Position numbers and translations under genes: made by a program. Of a stretch of 33,112 nucleotides of DNA, positions 14,537-25,010 are shown one piece after another. How positions within the stretch are numbered: the stretch's first letter is position 1; every line of letters begins with the position of its first letter. Location: IMG/VR virus record IMGVR_UViG_3300011337_000256, positions 1 through 33,112 of that record. One strand, 5' to 3'. A model generated the notes under the pieces. The model made no database searches. It saw nothing but the letters and a program-made list of their open reading frames with translations, and had not been told where the DNA came from. The DNA is from a virus (lineage: Duplodnaviria; Caudoviricetes).

Positions 14537-14565
14537 AGGGCGACTTAAAAAATCGCCCTTTTTTT
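14537..14565 (+). terminator. Intrinsic terminator ending the late region
   Basis: AGGGCGA/TCGCCCT stem followed by a T tract. Confidence 0.9.
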
Positions 14566-14635
14566 ATGCGTTATAAAATTAAACGTGTTGATTTTCAATG
14601 AGTTATAAAATAATTGAATATATTTTAAAAATATA

Positions 14636-14978: not shown

Positions 14979-15128
14979 ATGGCAGACAGTAAAAACTACA
15001 GTTACAAAGCATCGGGAATAATTAAAATAGTATTTACAAAGAAAGGAAAATTTGTAACTACAATAATGAAGGAAGACCGACTAAAAGATTATCCAAAAAC
15101 TAAATACGACATCGTTGAAATAATATGA
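14979..15128 (+). CDS. Small hypothetical protein (49 aa, MADSKNYSYK...)
   Basis: Translated by hand; ATGA-coupled to the next ORF. Confidence 0.6.
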   Translation: MADSKNYSYKASGIIKIVFTKKGKFVTTIMKEDRLKDYPKTKYDIVEII

Positions 15129-15262
15129 AGAAAAAAGCCAAACTAATACACCTAACACCTGAAGCAATTGCATACTGGACTGAAATCGCAAAAGCAAACG
15201 GAAGCACATTCAAAACATTTATACAAGTAATTTTAGAAGAAAGACCAAAACTTAAAAAATAA
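15125..15262 (+). CDS. Ribbon-helix-helix (Arc/CopG-like) DNA-binding protein, 45 aa, not in the ORF track
   Basis: MKKKAKLIHLTPEAIAYWTEIAKANGSTFKTFIQVILEERPKLKK: short beta strand, helix, G-S turn, helix. Confidence 0.6.
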   Translation: MKKKAKLIHLTPEAIAYWTEIAKANGSTFKTFIQVILEERPKLKK

Positions 15263-16785: not shown

Positions 16786-16793
16786 TACTTTTG
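16786..16793 (+). promoter_or_regulatory. Bacteroidota -7 promoter element TACTTTTG
   Basis: Exact TAnnTTTG in an intergenic region; TTTG at 16760-16763. Confidence 0.7.
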
Positions 16794-16796
16794 TAA

Positions 16797-16879
16797 TGTC
16801 GGGTGAGAGCGGCAAACGTAAAACATTAAACATTAAACCTATTGGTTACAACCTCTCACTTGTAGCCAGTAGGTTTTTT
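16797..16879 (+). ncRNA. Structured leader RNA, copy 1 (two hairpins with complementary loops)
   Basis: TGTCG-[GGTGAGAG]-CGGCA, 20-nt A-rich linker, then a 17-bp stem (2 G-U) with loop CCTCTCAC and a T tract. Confidence 0.7.
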
Positions 16880-16890
16880 ATTTATAGACT

Positions 16891-17202
16891 ATGGAAATTA
16901 ACACAGATTATTTAAGAGGTTTAGTAGATACCACACTAGAGTTCTACGAGCTAACAAATGGGCGTATTCCCAAAGACAAAGACTTGCAAATAAGTTATGA
17001 AATATTCACTGGCAGTCATTACGTTGTAGGTTGCAAGGTTACATTTACTTATAAAGTAACTGTTTCGAGCAAATGGGAAAGTGATAGCGAGCTTGAAGAA
17101 AATTGGCTAAAAATCTACGAGAAAGATACTATCAGCGGAGTAGTGAGTGATATTACTGACATTTTATCGGATATACATTTAAAATCAATTAATTATTTAT
17201 AA
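16891..17202 (+). CDS. Hypothetical protein
   Basis: 103 aa, first gene of the recombination operon. Confidence 0.65.
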   Translation: MEINTDYLRGLVDTTLEFYELTNGRIPKDKDLQISYEIFTGSHYVVGCKVTFTYKVTVSSKWESDSELEENWLKIYEKDTISGVVSDITDILSDIHLKSINYL

Positions 17203-17204
17203 TT

Positions 17205-17726
17205 ATGGAAAATTTAATTAAAATACAAAACGAACTTAAGGTGCCAAAAGGTAACTTAAACAAATTCGGTAACTATAAGTATAGAAGCGCAGAAGATATA
17301 TTAGAAGCTGTTAAACCTATTCTTTTAAAATATAACGAGCTATTAACATTAAGTGATGAAATATTGCCTATTGGTAATAAAGTATTCTTAAAAGCAACCG
17401 CACGCATTAAAGACGTTGTATCTTATGGTTATGCTGAACTATCTGAACATAAAGGAATGTCATCTGAGCAAGCCACCGGGACGGCAAGCAGTTACGCGCG
17501 AAAATATGCAATGAATGGACTTTTCTTAATAGATGAAACGGAAGCCGATCCGGATAGTAAAAAGAACTTATCACTATCCGAACAATTAGAAATAGCAAAA
17601 GCTAAGATAATAACAGCTAACAGCGCAGATGATTTGGTTAATAAATGGAATACATTAACTAATATTGAAAAGTCATTTGAGCCGGTTGTTTTATTAGCTA
17701 AGGAATTAAAATCTAAATTTAAGTAA
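17205..17726 (+). CDS. erf: ERF-family single-strand annealing protein
   Basis: N.FG.YKYRSAEDIL.AVKP and G.ASSYARKYA.NGLF.IDE...DPD signature. Confidence 0.9.
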   Translation: MENLIKIQNELKVPKGNLNKFGNYKYRSAEDILEAVKPILLKYNELLTLSDEILPIGNKVFLKATARIKDVVSYGYAELSEHKGMSSEQATGTASSYARKYAMNGLFLIDETEADPDSKKNLSLSEQLEIAKAKIITANSADDLVNKWNTLTNIEKSFEPVVLLAKELKSKFK

Positions 17727-17727
17727 T

Positions 17728-18216
17728 ATGAACATTTACCAAATCCAAAACGAATATTTGCTTTTAATAAACCAAATAATCGAAAACGGCGGAGAAGTAA
17801 CTCCGCAACAAGAATTGAATTTACAAATAACAAGGGAGCAATTACAAGACAAAGGCACAAACTATGCCTTTGTTATAAAGAAATTAGACGCTGAATGCGA
17901 CATCATTGATGCTGAGATAAAGAGACTAAGCGAATTAAAGAAAGTGCGTCAGAATGCTTGTGAACGTCTTAAATCAAATATAAGTCACGCAATGCAAATA
18001 TTTGAAGTTGATAAAATAGAAAGCCCATTGATTAAGCTATCATTTAGGAAATCTCAAAGCGTTAATGTAGCGGATGTTAATAGTTTACCGAATGAGTACA
18101 AGACAATTAAAGTAACTGAGCAAGCTGATAAGATTAAAATTAAACAAGCCTTATTGAATGGTGAAAAGATTGAAGGATGTGAGATAGTTAATAGTAATAA
18201 TTTACAAATAAAATGA
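17728..18216 (+). CDS. Siphovirus Gp157-family protein
   Basis: MNIYQI..EY start, EIKRL coiled coil, DK..IK.AL..G..IEG.......LQIK end; adjacent to Erf. Confidence 0.85.
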   Translation: MNIYQIQNEYLLLINQIIENGGEVTPQQELNLQITREQLQDKGTNYAFVIKKLDAECDIIDAEIKRLSELKKVRQNACERLKSNISHAMQIFEVDKIESPLIKLSFRKSQSVNVADVNSLPNEYKTIKVTEQADKIKIKQALLNGEKIEGCEIVNSNNLQIK

Positions 18217-19046
18217 AAAAAAAATTACTTGTATCATTTAGCGGTGGTGAAACTTCCGCTTTTATGGCACAATGGCTTTGGAAGCATAAGCAAAATGAAT
18301 TTGAAATGATATTTGTATTTGCAAATACTGGGCAAGAAAGCGAAGAAACTTTAATTTTTATTAATCAATGTGAAAAGGAGTTTGGATTTAAAATAAATTG
18401 GATTGAGTGCGATGTGAAAGAGGGTAAAGGAAACGGAACAAGATTTAAAATTACTGATTTTGAAAATGCAAAAAGAAATGGAGAACCATTTGAGCAGGTA
18501 ATTAAAAAATACGGAATACCCAATACTTCATTTTTGCATTGCACAAGAGAATTAAAGATGAACCCGATTAAAGCATACGCAAAAAGTATTTGGGGGAAAG
18601 AAAAGTATTATTTAGCAATAGGAATTAGAGTAGATGAATTTGATAGAATGAACGCTAATAAAGATAAATTAAGAATTATTTACCCATTAATTTCAAAAGA
18701 AATGCAACCAATGACAAAAAAAATGATTAATTTTTATTGGCAAAATATGCCATTTCGATTAAAATTAAAAGGCTATCAAGGTAATTGTGTTACTTGCTAT
18801 AAAAAGAGTGACAAAAAATTGTTTCAGATAGCTAAAGAAAATCCGAGTGCGTTTGATTTCTTTGATAGAATGGAAAAACAATATGGTAACGGACAGCAAA
18901 TATTTAGAAAAAATAGAACAGCCGAAATGATTTTAGAAGAAAGTAAAAATTGGAATGGAACAATTAAAGATGATTGTATAAACGAACTAACACTATTTGA
19001 TAATGATAGCTGTGAAGTATTTAGTAACTGTAATGAAAAAAATTAA
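18213..19046 (+). CDS. PAPS-reductase / PP-loop family protein
   Basis: VSFSGGETS PP-loop, FANTG.E, CTRELK..P, GIR.DE..R, YPL, GNC..C. Confidence 0.85.
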   Translation: MKKKLLVSFSGGETSAFMAQWLWKHKQNEFEMIFVFANTGQESEETLIFINQCEKEFGFKINWIECDVKEGKGNGTRFKITDFENAKRNGEPFEQVIKKYGIPNTSFLHCTRELKMNPIKAYAKSIWGKEKYYLAIGIRVDEFDRMNANKDKLRIIYPLISKEMQPMTKKMINFYWQNMPFRLKLKGYQGNCVTCYKKSDKKLFQIAKENPSAFDFFDRMEKQYGNGQQIFRKNRTAEMILEESKNWNGTIKDDCINELTLFDNDSCEVFSNCNEKN

Positions 19047-19052
19047 ATAACA

Positions 19053-19256
19053 ATGGAAAACAAACACTATAACAACGAAAACGGAAGCCTATATTTATTC
19101 GCTCAACATCATGAACTTAACGCCTGGGAGTTTGACATCATTAAGCGCGTAGTAAGATGCCGAAAGAAAGGGCAATGGCTTAGTGACATCAATAAGACTA
19201 TTAAGGTTTTAGAATTATACAGAGATGAAATGAAACATTTAAATGATGTGATATGA
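19053..19256 (+). CDS. DUF3310-like protein
   Basis: HY...IIK.V.R..KKG....D..K....L pattern. Confidence 0.6.
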   Translation: MENKHYNNENGSLYLFAQHHELNAWEFDIIKRVVRCRKKGQWLSDINKTIKVLELYRDEMKHLNDVI

Positions 19257-19486
19257 AACGCTGTTTCACTTGCAACCGATTAAAACCATTAATTTGTTTT
19301 AAAATTAATCACAGAAAGTATCAGTTAAAATCTGACAAACGTAGGGCCGTTAACTGTAGGCTCTGCAACGTTAAACGATTGATTAAACAAGACGGAGAAG
19401 TAATTAAGTACAATTATGAGACGAATAAATATGAAGCTGTTACAATTAAAACTAATTTAATAAACATAATAAAATACTACTTATGA
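19253..19486 (+). CDS. Small zinc-finger protein
   Basis: CFTC...CRLC pairs; basic. Confidence 0.6.
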   Translation: MKRCFTCNRLKPLICFKINHRKYQLKSDKRRAVNCRLCNVKRLIKQDGEVIKYNYETNKYEAVTIKTNLINIIKYYL

Positions 19487-19974
19487 ATATCGAAAAAACA
19501 CACCGAGCGTTATTAATGTATGTTGGAATTGCCAAAACATTAAATGATGAAACTTGTCGATTTTTAAACGAATTTAAGCAAGATAACAAGCGAAGATTTA
19601 ATAACTATGTTGGCGACCTAACTAGCTTCCAAAACACAGTAAGAAAGAATATGAACATGGAGGGAGTAGACGCGGCAGATCAGTTGCAAGACTATCAACA
19701 TAAAATAATTCAGGAACTAATCGAAAAGGAAAAGTATAAGGATATTGAAACGTTTTTAGCTTTCAGTAAAATGCTTTCACTTGTTTACAATAGTTATTTA
19801 AAAATGTATAAGCATGCTTCAAAGGATAACTTTACTTCATTAAATAACTCAGCTAATATATTCAGAAATACCTTAGCGTTTAACAATGCAGAACAAAAAA
19901 AAGTTGATGATTACATTCATGGATTTGTTATGAGTTTAATTGAAAATAATGAGTGGAGTAGGGAGGTTAAATAA
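19483..19974 (+). CDS. Hypothetical helical protein with an internal tandem duplication
   Basis: Two ~70-aa halves each containing K.L...K...K..F...F.NT...DY.H...LIE. Confidence 0.6.
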   Translation: MNIEKTHRALLMYVGIAKTLNDETCRFLNEFKQDNKRRFNNYVGDLTSFQNTVRKNMNMEGVDAADQLQDYQHKIIQELIEKEKYKDIETFLAFSKMLSLVYNSYLKMYKHASKDNFTSLNNSANIFRNTLAFNNAEQKKVDDYIHGFVMSLIENNEWSREVK

Positions 19975-19999
19975 AAAAATATTATGTGTTTTTAAAAGT

Positions 20000-20045
20000 G
20001 TACATTAGGTATAATTTAGGTATAAATTAGGTACATTAGGTATAA
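20000..20045. repeat. Array of four TTAGGTA direct repeats
   Basis: Copies at 20005, 20016, 20027 and 20036; GTACATTAGGTATAA is repeated at 20000 and 20031. Confidence 0.9.
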
Positions 20046-20080
20046 ATCAATTTAACTCATGATAATTAAATAATTATTTG

Positions 20081-20088
20081 TATATTTG
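20081..20088 (+). promoter_or_regulatory. Bacteroidota -7 promoter element TATATTTG
   Basis: Exact TAnnTTTG upstream of the replication operon; no clear -33 element. Confidence 0.65.
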
Positions 20089-20093
20089 CATCT

Positions 20094-20176
20094 GTTGTGT
20101 AGGAGCAACTATTTATAAAAAATTTACAAAAGACCTCTATTGTGCGGAACTCCTACTCCAAACTCTAGAGGTTTTT
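20094..20176 (+). ncRNA. Structured leader RNA, copy 2 (two hairpins with complementary loops)
   Basis: GTTG-[TGTAGGAG]-CAAC, 21-nt AT linker, AGACCTCTA/TAGAGGTTT outer stem, GGA/TCC inner stem, loop ACTCCTAC, T tract. Confidence 0.65.
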
Positions 20177-20188
20177 ACGTTAATAATT

Positions 20189-20383
20189 ATGCCAACAAAA
20201 ACTCAGTTTATTTGCAGTTACGAAAGTACAGATGTATTAGAATTAATACATGATGAAAAAGATTTAATAATTCAATTTAAAGATTTATTAAATATTGATG
20301 ATTTAAGAGAAATTATTTTAAACAAATATGATTGTAAAAAATTAATTTCTGAATTATTAATTATAGAAAAAAAATTAAAATAA
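20189..20383 (+). CDS. Small hypothetical protein (64 aa, MPTKTQF...; track start at TTG 20078 is unlikely)
   Basis: ATG follows the leader RNA; TAATG-coupled to the initiator gene. Confidence 0.6.
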   Translation: MPTKTQFICSYESTDVLELIHDEKDLIIQFKDLLNIDDLREIILNKYDCKKLISELLIIEKKLK

Positions 20384-21153
20384 TGGCTGAAGATAAAAAA
20401 TCATTTTTAATGTATTGTGATTTAATACATACTATTAAAAAAATGCCAGATGATAAAGCTGGTTTATTATTTAAACATTTATTAGCCTATGTAAATGATG
20501 AAAATCCTATTACAGATGACTTATTAATAGAATTAACTTTTGAGCCAATTAAACAACAATTAAAAAGAGATTTAATAAAATGGGAAAATGAAATAATTAA
20601 AAAAGGAGATTCTGGAGCATTAGGAAATCTTAAAAGATGGAATGAAGATTTGTATAAACAAGTGATTAACAAGGAGTTAAGTTTACAAAAAGCTGTTGAA
20701 ATCGCAAAGAGTCGCAAACTATCGCAGTGCGATGAAATTAATCGCACCGAGTCGCAAAGTGTCGCAAACATCGCTGTAAATGATAATGTTAATGTTAATG
20801 TTAATGATATAAATATATCTTTTGATTGTTTTTGGAATCTTTACAATAAAAAGGTTGGTGACAAAAAGAAAATTGAAAATAAATGGAATAAATTAAAAAA
20901 TGAGGATAGACAAAAAATAATTAATACATTGCCAACTTTTTTAAATTCAATAACAGATAAACAGTTTCAACCATTTCCTGAAACGTATTTAAATAATAAA
21001 CGTTGGAATGATGAAATAATTGAAAATCAAAACTCAAATAAAAAACATTATTATTTAAGTAGTCCATTTGGAACTTGGGATGGTCTTTTAACTGAAGATG
21101 AATTTAAAAATAAAACATTAACTAATTACTGGACTTTAATTAAAATAGCATGA
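20383..21153 (+). CDS. Replication initiator (DUF6291-like N-terminus; C-terminal F..FW..Y.KK...P.TYLN..RW.DE domain)
   Basis: KKSFLMY.D...M.D..AG.LF..L..Y start, NVNVN low-complexity linker, internal iterons, upstream of primase-helicase. Confidence 0.75.
   Translation: MAEDKKSFLMYCDLIHTIKKMPDDKAGLLFKHLLAYVNDENPITDDLLIELTFEPIKQQLKRDLIKWENEIIKKGDSGALGNLKRWNEDLYKQVINKELSLQKAVEIAKSRKLSQCDEINRTESQSVANIAVNDNVNVNVNDINISFDCFWNLYNKKVGDKKKIENKWNKLKNEDRQKIINTLPTFLNSITDKQFQPFPETYLNNKRWNDEIIENQNSNKKHYYLSSPFGTWDGLLTEDEFKNKTLTNYWTLIKIA
20701..20815. other. Putative replication origin inside the initiator gene
   Basis: RTCGCA at 20701, 20711, 20721, 20741, 20751, 20761 (10-bp phase), one inverted copy at 20728, then AATGWT repeats and an AT-rich tract. 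Confidence 0.7.
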
Positions 21154-23024
21154 TAAGCGAAATCTCAATAAATAAAGTAAAAGACTCTGCTAAAATTGTT
21201 GATGTCATTTCTGATTATTTAGAACTTAAAAAAAATGGTGCAAATTATATTTGTTTAAGTCCTTTTAGTAATGAAAAAAATCCATCATTTACAGTTAGTC
21301 AATCTAAAAATATATTTAAATGTTTTAGCACAGGTAAAGGAGGTGACTGTATTACATTTTTAATGGAATATAAAAAAATCAATTATATTGATGCTATTAA
21401 ACTTTTAGCTGAAAAATATGTAATAGAGTTAATTGAAGAAAAAAACACCTCAAAACAAAATTATACACGTCCTATATGGAAAAATAATACTATCTTATCT
21501 GATAAGGTTATTAAATGGTTTGAAAATGAAAGAAAAATATCTCAAAACACTTTAAATGATTTAAAAATTAGTGAGGGTATTGAATGGATGCCTAAAAAAA
21601 ATGATTCAAAAGGTCATAATATAAATACTATTCAATTTAATTATTTTATTGATAATAAATTAATTAATACAAAATTTAGAGATTCTTTAAAAATGTTTAA
21701 ACTAGTTTCAGGAGCTGAATTAGTTTTATATAATTTAGATTCTTTAAATGGTTATACAAGTTGTTTTATTACAGAAGGTGAAATTGATGCCTTAACTTTA
21801 CATGAATGTGGTTTTAAAAATGTTATTTCTGTTCCAAATGGAGCAAGTAAAGGAAAAAATAATTTAACCTATTTAGATAATTCAATACAATATCTTGAAC
21901 ATATTAATGAATTTATACTTTGTTTAGATAATGATGAAAATGGTAATAAATTAAAAGATGAACTTGCAAGACGTTTAGGTTTTGAAAATTGTAAAACAGT
22001 TACTTTTAAAGATTGTAAAGACGCAAACGAATGTTTAGTTAAATATGGTAAACAAATAATAATAGATTCAATTAAAGATGCTAAAGAGTTTCCAATAGTT
22101 GGCGTATTTAATTCACATGATATTGAAAATGATATTTTAGATTATTATAATAATGGTTTACCTGAAGGTACTGGAATTAATATGGCTGAAATAGATACTA
22201 ATATTAGATTTCACCAAGGTTATTTAACAATGTTAACTGGAATACCTGGACATGGAAAATCAGAGTTTTTAGATTTTTTATTATGTAGATTAAATTTATC
22301 AGATGATAATTGGAAAACAGCTTATTTTAGTCCTGAAAATCATCCACTTCAATTACATTTTAGTAAACTTGCAGAAAAATTAATAGGAAAATCATTTGAT
22401 AAAAAAAGTAACAATAGATTAAGTCCTATTGATTTAAGAAATGCTATTGATTATTGTAGTGAAAATTTTTATTTTATTAATCCTGAAGAAGATTTTTCAA
22501 TTAATTCTATTTTAAAAAGTGTTAAAGAATTAATTAAACGAAAAGGAATAAAAGCATTTGTTATTGATGCATGGAATAAATTAGACCATAAAAGAGGTAA
22601 TAAAGATAAAAATGATTATATAAGTGAAACTTTAGACATTATTATAAAATTTTGCGAACGTAATTTAATTCATTGTTTTTTAGTTGCACATCCTACAAAA
22701 ATGGGTAAAGATAAAGACGGGAAACCTGAAATACCTAGTTTGTATAATATTTCAGATTCAGCTCATTTTTTTAATAAAACAGCAAATGGCATTTGTGTTT
22801 ATAGAAATTTTGAAACTGGATGTGTAGAAATTCATATTCAGAAAGTAAAATTCAAACATTGGGGGCAAACATCAACAGTACATTTAGCATGGAATAAAGA
22901 TAATGGTCGTTATTATAAAGGTTATCCAAATAATGATAATTGGTTAAACTACGAAAAACCATTACAAAACAATACTAACTTTTTAAATGATATAATTTTT
23001 AATAACGAAGAAACACCATTTTAA
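21150..23024 (+). CDS. Primase-helicase: DnaG-type zinc-binding domain + TOPRIM + SF4 (T7 gp4/Twinkle-like) helicase
   Basis: SPF..EK.PSF.V...FKCFSTGKGGD; ITEGEIDAL; LDND..G; KDANE; TGIPGHGKSEF Walker A; VIDAWN; LVAHP.K; acidic tail EETPF. Confidence 0.92.
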   Translation: MISEISINKVKDSAKIVDVISDYLELKKNGANYICLSPFSNEKNPSFTVSQSKNIFKCFSTGKGGDCITFLMEYKKINYIDAIKLLAEKYVIELIEEKNTSKQNYTRPIWKNNTILSDKVIKWFENERKISQNTLNDLKISEGIEWMPKKNDSKGHNINTIQFNYFIDNKLINTKFRDSLKMFKLVSGAELVLYNLDSLNGYTSCFITEGEIDALTLHECGFKNVISVPNGASKGKNNLTYLDNSIQYLEHINEFILCLDNDENGNKLKDELARRLGFENCKTVTFKDCKDANECLVKYGKQIIIDSIKDAKEFPIVGVFNSHDIENDILDYYNNGLPEGTGINMAEIDTNIRFHQGYLTMLTGIPGHGKSEFLDFLLCRLNLSDDNWKTAYFSPENHPLQLHFSKLAEKLIGKSFDKKSNNRLSPIDLRNAIDYCSENFYFINPEEDFSINSILKSVKELIKRKGIKAFVIDAWNKLDHKRGNKDKNDYISETLDIIIKFCERNLIHCFLVAHPTKMGKDKDGKPEIPSLYNISDSAHFFNKTANGICVYRNFETGCVEIHIQKVKFKHWGQTSTVHLAWNKDNGRYYKGYPNNDNWLNYEKPLQNNTNFLNDIIFNNEETPF

Positions 23025-24037: not shown

Positions 24038-24495
24038 CCCCCCTACAACAACTAACAGAATTAGACTGGCAAATACGATGCAAAGAGTCTAGGATGCCTC
24101 CTGAATATATTGTACGAACGAAGTTTACTGATAAGACAGCAAATTCATTAACTAAGGCTATTGTAAAATGGATTAACCTAAACGGATACCAGGCAGAACG
24201 TATCAGTACTTCGGGACGTTGGGTTGATAATTCTAAGGTTGTTACTGATGTACTTGGAAATCAAAAAAAGATAGGCTCAGGAAAATACATTAAAGGATCG
24301 GGGACTAAGGGGTCTGCGGATATTAGCGCAACTATCAAAGGCAAATCAATTAAGATAGAAGTAAAAATAGGTAAGGATAAGCAATCCGAAGCACAAATAG
24401 AATATCAGAAAGCTATTGAAAAAGCTGGCGGTATTTACTTTATTGCAAAAGATTTTACTTCATTTTATGAATTTTATAGTACTTTAGTACAGTGA
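24034..24495 (+). CDS. VRR-NUC / PD-(D/E)xK nuclease (Holliday-junction-resolvase-like)
   Basis: G.ADI....G....IEVK..KD.QS.AQ...Q..IE.AGG.Y. Confidence 0.8.
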   Translation: MTPLQQLTELDWQIRCKESRMPPEYIVRTKFTDKTANSLTKAIVKWINLNGYQAERISTSGRWVDNSKVVTDVLGNQKKIGSGKYIKGSGTKGSADISATIKGKSIKIEVKIGKDKQSEAQIEYQKAIEKAGGIYFIAKDFTSFYEFYSTLVQ

Positions 24496-25010
24496 CAAAA
24501 CAAGAACAAATAACAGAACTGTTTAAAGACACATCGTTAAAAAACAATGCTCGAAAGTTATGCAACAATCGAGACATCTTTAACGACCTTTTTCAGGAAA
24601 CTTTTATTTATTTGTTGGAGTTACCCGATGAAAAGTTTAACCGAATAAATAACCTTAAGGCTTTCGCATTCACTGTTATGTTTGGTAAGGCAAACAGCCA
24701 GGCCCGAAACTATAACCTAAATGGTAAAGATAATGTTCTATTTGAAATGTCTAATAAGTTCGGAATATTCGACGGCACTAACATAGCTCATAGCGAATAT
24801 AATTACAAGATTGATGAAGACTTCGATAAGGTCATATCATATTTGAACACCGATAATACTATTAAGGAAACGGATGTATATGTTTTATTTGAATCAACAA
24901 ATGATAAGACTTTAAAGGAGCTTTCAAAGGATTTAGATATGAGTTATCATACTATACGATTAAACAGAAAGAAATTAATAAAAAAAATAATTAATAACGT
25001 GGTGTTATGA
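24492..25010 (+). CDS. ECF-like RNA polymerase sigma factor
   Basis: Region-2-like A.KLC.N....DLFQETF..L and ...L.AF.F.V; C-terminal HTH TLKELSKDLDMSYHTIR; last regulator before the late genes. Confidence 0.75.
   Translation: MTKQEQITELFKDTSLKNNARKLCNNRDIFNDLFQETFIYLLELPDEKFNRINNLKAFAFTVMFGKANSQARNYNLNGKDNVLFEMSNKFGIFDGTNIAHSEYNYKIDEDFDKVISYLNTDNTIKETDVYVLFESTNDKTLKELSKDLDMSYHTIRLNRKKLIKKIINNVVL

Follow-up and report, generated by a model that had tools for sequence, protein, structure and literature searches.

A leader RNA with complementary, exchangeable loop words ahead of early operons of Bacteroidota phages: a putative ligand-free anti-terminator

The locus and its two leaders

The window analysed here, the whole stretch of DNA, is a single virus record; it is 33,112 bases long, with 32% G+C and an end repeat of 189 nt. 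Among its 47 ORFs scanned, family matches were obtained for terminase, portal, tape measure, Erf, Gp157, DUF6291, a primase-helicase and a sigma-like protein; the same 47 ORFs gave no match to an integrase and none to a known anti-terminator family, the latter being a weak negative. The relatives of the window are Bacteroidota contigs and phages of Flavobacteriia. Two operons, one for recombination and one for replication, are each headed by a leader composed of a promoter box, a small hairpin, a linker and a terminator-like hairpin:

16786..16793, + strand, Bacteroidota sigma-A promoter box TAnnTTTG, read from the sequence
16797..16814, + strand, hairpin 1 of copy 1, 5 pairs in sequence, loop 16802-16809, word GUGAGAG at 16803-16809
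16815..16834, + strand, single-stranded A-rich linker, 20 nt, 11 A
16835..16879, + strand, predicted terminator hairpin (17 pairs at 16835-16876, two of them G-U) and six-T run
16891..19974, + strand, operon behind copy 1: 103-aa ORF, Erf, Gp157, PAPS-reductase-like gene, three small ORFs
17205-17726, + strand, Erf, second gene of the copy-1 operon
17728-18216, + strand, Gp157, copy-1 operon
18213-19046, + strand, PAPS-reductase-like gene, copy-1 operon
20081..20180, + strand, leader copy 2: promoter box, two hairpins, a different 7-nt word
20094-20109, + strand, hairpin 1 of copy 2, word GUAGGAG, from base-by-base reading
20132-20173, + strand, terminator of copy 2, loop word CUCCUAC, from base-by-base reading
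20189..23024, + strand, operon behind copy 2: 64-aa ORF without assigned family, DUF6291 replication protein, primase-helicase
20383-21153, + strand, DUF6291 replication protein, copy-2 operon
21150-23024, + strand, primase-helicase, copy-2 operon

In copy 1, the loop of hairpin 2 covers 16852-16859 with the word CUCUCAC at 16853-16859, the T run lies at 16874-16879, and the ATG at 16891 follows 11 nt past the run. The promoter, hairpin, linker, loop and ATG coordinates of the first-pass annotation all hold on base-by-base reading, and so does its statement that GTGAGAG (16803) and CTCTCAC (16853) are exact complements, each of which occurs only once in the 33 kb. It had reported two G-U stem positions; these are found in hairpin 2, and hairpin 1 adds a third. 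At the base of hairpin 2, the T run itself contributes the U partners of three A-U pairs, and the terminator arm of this copy has no internal loop. The z score of the fold is -4.0 on the + strand (0 of 200 shuffles as good) and -0.7 on the - strand; hairpin 1 by itself is no better than shuffles (z -0.9). Furthermore, the terminator shows compensatory changes among five orthologous copies. According to passages of PMC9723704, the promoter box of Flavobacterium psychrophilum is located at -12 to -5 (further promoter background is taken from passages of PMC7366714). With the box so placed, transcription of copy 1 is predicted to start at G16798, and hairpin 1 therefore probably has 4 bp in the RNA. 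Across 56 words of the family described below, hairpin 1 begins on average 4.9 nt past the box. The copy-1 terminator also lies where it would halt transcription entering from the operon before it.

Only the two copies score with the covariance model in the window, and copy 1 is recovered at E 0.0012 by a model of nine sequences from which it was excluded. Their linkers are 20-22 nt long, and their words do not cross-pair (-3 versus -9.5 kcal/mol). No further TAnnTTTG box is found on the + strand at 16794-20080, and none between 20089 and 21150; thus, with no other such box before the replication and recombination genes, the terminators must be passed for these genes to be transcribed. The element had been proposed to regulate Erf/Gp157 expression. 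The leader indeed heads that operon, in which Erf is the second gene behind a 103-aa ORF without family match (the best score in an Atlas search was 0.78, with no family), but the same leader heads other types of genes elsewhere, so that the regulation is not particular to Erf and Gp157. The cis-regulatory position proposed for it is supported.

Several other elements are located in the window. An ordinary terminator-like hairpin (14537-14568) lies downstream of the lysis genes, and two promoter boxes at 14632 and 14660, without a kissing leader, head the first early operon. A 45-aa basic ORF at 15125-15262 resembles, by eye, a ribbon-helix-helix DNA-binding protein and has no family match. 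Just upstream of the packaging genes, a 172-aa protein (24492-25010) with weak sigma-70 region 2 matches is a candidate for a late activator. Four short direct repeats of TTAGGTA (at 20005, 20016, 20027 and 20036 within 20001-20047) are present 5′ of the copy-2 promoter; they are missing from the loci L001 and L081, have another repeat in their place in L289, and could be an operator, an iteron or a product of slippage.

Complementarity of the loops and the leader family

The loop match of copy 1 is confirmed as real, and its selection is supported by scans in which the match was left free. Erf and DUF6291 proteins served to fetch 253 sequences (2.86 Mb) with 4293 promoter motifs, and these led to 285 promoter-hairpin-terminator units (266 unique), for which no loop match was required. 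Matches of at least 6 nt were found in 54 of the 266 units against 1.7 expected with permuted loops, and those of at least 7 nt in 28 against 0.35. Likewise, 52 of 2500 unique terminators match the loop of a hairpin further upstream over 7-8 nt, where 2.4 would be expected, and a TAnnTTTG box accompanies 41 of these 52, as compared with 149 of the 2500 terminators overall. A pattern for viral contigs that fixes the promoter, the outer loop bases and the terminator tail leaves three loop bases free; all three are complementary in 48 of the 103 unique matches listed, comprising 15 words, where the chance rate is 1.6% (about 2 expected), and in a metagenome scan the proportion was 12 of 117, with a chance rate of 2.0%. 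In the alignment A9, the loop helix is 97% paired and has a covariation score of 0.69 (0.19 when shuffled); both partners vary in five of its seven pairs and in all four modelled pairs of hairpin 1. Because the 56 distinct rows of A9 are related, fitted to the model and mostly picked for the match, the scans carry the weight. In addition, the 56 terminators contain 112 G-U pairs, and in 50 of them the sense strand folds more stably than the antisense strand, which points to RNA. The loop-loop pseudoknot and the selection at the RNA level proposed for copy 1 are thus both supported. A loose descriptor without the terminator requirement was too noisy (77 of 630 motifs versus 170 of 1851 shuffles), and an extension of the match into the stems was rejected, since 44 of 56 words lack it on the 5′ side and 47 on the other.

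The collected family amounts to about 107 copies with 58 words, so that the complementarity, whose conservation in homologues had been suggested as a check, is indeed kept with changed letters. L142 and L246 (likely chance) and L111 (unparsed) were dropped from the counts, as was L106 for its linker of 50 nt; removal of L368 and of one mis-parse of 4-6 nt (below 6 nt) brings 107 copies to 105, and four weak matches in cultured phages were rejected by eye. A typical member has a hairpin 1 of 4-13 pairs, a 7-nt match, a linker of median 18 nt with a mean A fraction of 0.50, a terminator arm of median 19 nt and an ATG at a median of 17 nt behind the stem (minimum 5). Several members combine linkers of 8-10 nt with arms of 18-21 nt, and several have 43-49 nt between the stem and the ATG. 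The U run at the end of every collected member was part of the search criteria. The words can swap hairpins: among 46 non-pattern words, the GUnnnAG form is located in hairpin 1 in 11 and in the terminator loop in five. Many members have purine-rich internal loops and a GUnGnAG-type bias; the high conservation in A9 sits at positions largely fixed by the pattern and the model. The internal loops of the terminator arms (56 words) include 14 of the tandem-GA, eight of the AGUA/GAA and five of the GC/AA type, and the linker motif AAAYATT is present in 11 of 58 words (1.9 when shuffled). Close relatives carry different words at one and the same site. Six loci have two copies, each locus using two different words, and in one contig the two copies share one word (L259, L312).

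The first ORFs behind the leaders were scanned for 73 of 106 members, those left out being mainly finds made with DUF6291 queries and orthologues of the window. They comprise 21 homing-type nucleases, four helicases, three DUF6291 proteins, two methylases, two BT4734-like proteins, one primase-polymerase, two others and 38 without family match. As for cultured carriers, the leader is found in five of nine phage records scanned: the Flavobacterium phages morran9-1, elemoA_1-9A and 11b, Cellulophaga phage phi13:2, which carries two copies, and Olleya phage Harreka_1. None was found in the whole or partial records scanned of PT33, PJN03, BF3-TP1 and Arctus_1, and a blastn search with one member against named phages gave no match. 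Among 80 loci in bacterial genomes, the leader is present in 10 of 47 short contigs and in none of 33 contigs longer than 50 kb, and a narrow pattern found it in none of 401 host genomes of the family of genome G001. Seven weak matches of the model R2 in 151 genomes (29 candidates scored per genome) were all judged by eye to be ordinary terminators. Within the limits of these searches, the leader looks like a feature of free phages.

Some further structural ideas were discarded. GA motifs that suggested a kink-turn are symmetric internal loops on inspection. A mini-hairpin in the 5′ arm of the terminator (16836-16847 in the window) occurs in 20% of members versus 26% of 525 control terminators. 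Unfolding of hairpin 1 by upstream read-in, an insulator-like behavior, is seen in the window's own copies but is not a rule of the family, own and foreign upstream sequences acting alike (55 words, p 0.28). Opposite-strand boxes show a mild excess within 200 nt of the leader (15 of 58 versus 33 of 251 background windows); they are scattered, and the one in the window at 16820 is broken in L001 and L081, so that a conserved antisense promoter was rejected.

There are also more divergent cases. In a naturally occurring copy, L318:1501-1593, the loop pair contains a single mismatch; the intact form stands beside it, in L316. A similar loop-matched leader in L068 (5700-5830), perhaps from outside Bacteroidota, has no TAnnTTTG box and carries a Shine-Dalgarno-like word before its ATG. 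Upstream of DUF6291 in L095, L155 and L157, branched terminator hairpins have a loop that matches an unstructured 5′ word.

Function of the loop pair and competing readings

From the layout, the covarying loop match, the RNA-strand bias and the position before genes that have no other promoter box, we infer that the loop-loop pair may be a ligand-free anti-terminator that sets read-through into the recombination and replication genes, a reading to which we give about an even chance. In such a mechanism, the host polymerase would initiate at G16798 and hairpin 1 would fold first; the terminator loop, on leaving the polymerase, would pair with hairpin 1 before the terminator base can zip, after which the closed ring and the tether would impede the closing of this base, in the manner suggested for the guanidine-IV riboswitch. 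Any transcript in which the pairing fails would stop and be released as an RNA of about 83 nt, and the split between the two outcomes would be set by folding kinetics, not by a metabolite.

Along with the need to pass the terminators and the DUF6291 count given below, three observations lead us to read the loop pair as the ON state. When the polymerase pauses at the U run with 14 nt in its interior, 38 of 56 words have their loops paired by then in a nested ensemble (0.96 and 0.99 for the window copies), the other 18 showing no pairing at this point in the nested model. The mean energy of the loop helix is -9.0 kcal/mol, similar in size to the mean of -11.4 kcal/mol for the final seven pairs of the terminator. 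Moreover, linker length falls as the terminator arm grows (rho -0.43, p 0.003, 45 words), and the sum of linker and arm has a smaller spread than in permutations (p 0.024); this trend, which depends on the calling of helix ends and on related sequences, is the reverse of what coexistence of the loop pair with the full terminator would need. By simple reach, such coexistence is allowed in 38 of the 56 words, the window's copies included. Since the linkers in the window are long enough for it, the anti-terminator model needs a kinetic or topological block, which might come from winding of the terminator arm inside the closed ring. Pure sterics do not explain the purine-rich internal loops and the GUnGnAG-type bias.

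Of 79 viral DUF6291 loci, 75 are distinct, and 42 of them have a terminator within 700 nt upstream; 36 of these 42 terminators show the loop match, and most of the six without it look like hairpins of coding sequence. The 33 further loci without a called terminator include some missed elements. Inheritance of the whole unit can also account for this pattern.

The preferred model has to be weighed against four others. The paired-loop fold might instead be recognized by RNA polymerase or by a protein of the phage or the host, which would then suppress termination at this site and perhaps at later ones, in a put-like or nut-like manner. The copies head recombination and replication operons, which recalls putL and putR of HK022 (PMC9378689), and the recurrent internal loops of the terminator arms and the linker motif AAAYATT also speak for recognition; it is nevertheless rather unlikely, given that window copy 1 lacks an internal loop, that the two words can swap hairpins and, as a weak negative, that the 47 window ORFs include no anti-terminator family. 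It is also improbable, to a slightly greater degree, that the loop pair, without opposing termination, compacts and stabilizes the released short RNA or reinforces the stop, while a constant leak feeds the downstream genes. Reach would allow the full fold in the majority of words as noted above, the sense strand folds better in 50 of 56 terminators, and low dosage makes sense for the homing-type nucleases that form 21 of the 73 first genes; against this, the leader also precedes genes for primase-helicase and recombination that have no further promoter box, several members have the short linkers and long arms described above, and no conserved unpaired sequence is available to serve as a targeting seed. 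A translational output, in which the loop pair would hold the terminator base open and keep the start codon accessible in the read-through mRNA, is highly improbable: the start codon is close behind the stem in the median member, and the terminator loop of the sister class described below is complementary to the start region itself, but several members place the ATG 43-49 nt away, and every collected member ends in the U run that the search demanded.

Released leaders might also act in trans, the terminator loop capturing hairpin 1 of newly made transcripts that share the word and forcing termination, which would make an RNA-only timer or a word-specific block of superinfection. This reading is suggested by three-site leaders, which carry the word both near +1 and at the start codon and its complement in the terminator loop, a layout like seqA/CI/seqC of P4 (PMC4825925). 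Such leaders number 27 among 4124 promoter motifs versus 3.5 in shuffles, with two of the 27 counted twice and several likely to be chance. They belong to Bacteroidota phages and prophage-like loci (among them L088:19965, L057, L063, L069, L072, L086:6987, L097:3511, L111:9589, L130:680, L141:9870, L149:2777, L171:2422, L193:700, L239:14952 and L244:1834), and in Riemerella phage PT33 one is found two genes ahead of an antirepressor. This class resembles P4 CI/c4 control and is closer to it than the window element is (PMC4825925), and its layout would fit a freeing of the gene through pairing with the 5′ word. The lack of cross-pairing between the window words, the use of two words in each of the six two-copy loci and the different words of close relatives at one site also speak for action in trans. 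However, the window has no third site, and among the short forms one is found at 6 nt or more in two of 107 versus about 1.2 expected; both copies on one contig use the same word (L259, L312), and the released RNA of long-linker members could pair with itself. Because the window element has no third site, feedback in trans stays a rival of the anti-terminator model, and an unlikely one.

A wider proposal, which we consider speculative and unlikely, is that the early programme of Bacteroidota phages runs on an RNA-only code, in which every operon has a ligand-free kissing-loop anti-terminator with a 7-nt word of its own and the released leaders act back in trans on transcripts that carry this word. 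If true, it would constitute a protein-free timer that also excludes co-infecting phages by their words, like P4 CI immunity in miniature but on guanidine-IV topology. In any case, the leader is a common cis RNA heading operons for replication, recombination and nucleases, in phages whose hosts form a major aquatic phylum with little-studied transcription control. Its occurrence in cultured phages makes the mechanism directly testable, and sets of words without cross-pairing could serve as tunable terminators in Bacteroidota genetics.

Comparison with known RNAs

The search of Rfam that had been suggested for copy 1 found nothing: with Rfam 15, there was no hit at the gathering score in the window and 20 member loci, and none up to E 5 in 13 member loci; three unrelated chance hits lie off the elements. 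This bears on guanidine-IV only if Rfam 15 includes a model of it. No description of this phage leader was found in the literature accessible to the search, most subscription papers and survey supplements being outside it, and the passages available of the motif surveys PMC2864571, PMC5737381 and preprint 10.64898/2026.10.21.760802 do not describe it.

The nearest counterpart in design is the guanidine-IV riboswitch (mepA or GGAM-1 motif), in which the P1 loop is proposed to pair with the terminator loop and thereby to prevent formation of the terminator base, so that the topology acts as an ON switch (bioRxiv 2020.10.21.349134; PMC7736828; PMC11611296), with read-through that depends on guanidine; Gd4v is a variant of it (PMC9788692). 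Both RNAs have a 5′ hairpin, a linker and a U-run terminator, both pair their loops, and both act or are located in cis before a gene. In the riboswitch, loop bases are 97% conserved and form the ligand pocket, whereas none is invariant among the 58 words of 107 copies here, and the SugE, MATE/MepA and PnuC genes that follow the riboswitch are absent from the 73 first ORFs (one weak GNAT match is in a 391-aa AAA-GNAT protein). The leader here precedes early genes of Bacteroidota phages, a loop match of 7-8 bp would not need a ligand, and in 18 of 56 words, not the window's copies, the linker is by simple reach too short for the loop pair and the full terminator. For want of conserved pocket bases and of a matching gene context, membership in guanidine-IV fails.

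P4 CI RNA, with its seqA/CI/seqC layout, is similar in that its leader holds, close to the 5′ end, a site complementary to a loop word and in that premature termination occurs ahead of replication-type genes (PMC4825925). The P4 CI and c4 systems use a processed small RNA that acts in trans. The window element differs: it is predicted to be about 83 nt long, has two sites only with no second downstream target, and shows neither an Rfam c4 match nor an integrase match in the window genome. In HK022, putL and putR follow two early promoters (PMC9378689), and put RNA is likewise a two-hairpin cis RNA present in two copies, which causes protein-free, persistent anti-termination and binds the zinc-binding domain of the polymerase (PMC9378689); a corresponding role is only proposed here. 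Unlike in put, the second hairpin here is terminator-like, the hairpins are 20 nt apart, and it is loop complementarity, not sequence, that is conserved. Counter-transcript attenuators of pT181-type plasmids use an antisense RNA from a conserved opposite-strand promoter, and such a promoter is not conserved in the leader family.

A candidate in the supplement of a viral RNA screen of 2023 (PMC10690425) that carries no name beyond its identifier, DNAVirus_8377, may be a subfamily of the leader, matched by description and gene context and not by alignment. It is 105 nt long with 88 sequences and a called terminator, mostly from freshwater with a Bacteroidetes host, and lies directly before HNH_3, NUMOD4, AP2 and GIY-YIG genes (PMC10690425), a gene context shared by one subfamily of the leader; the word "kissing" is absent from the main text, and the passages seen do not discuss such a motif. 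The leader is thus a common, so far unnamed phage RNA, in which terminator-loop kissing, a design that one riboswitch class had made known, is employed with interchangeable words and without a conserved pocket.
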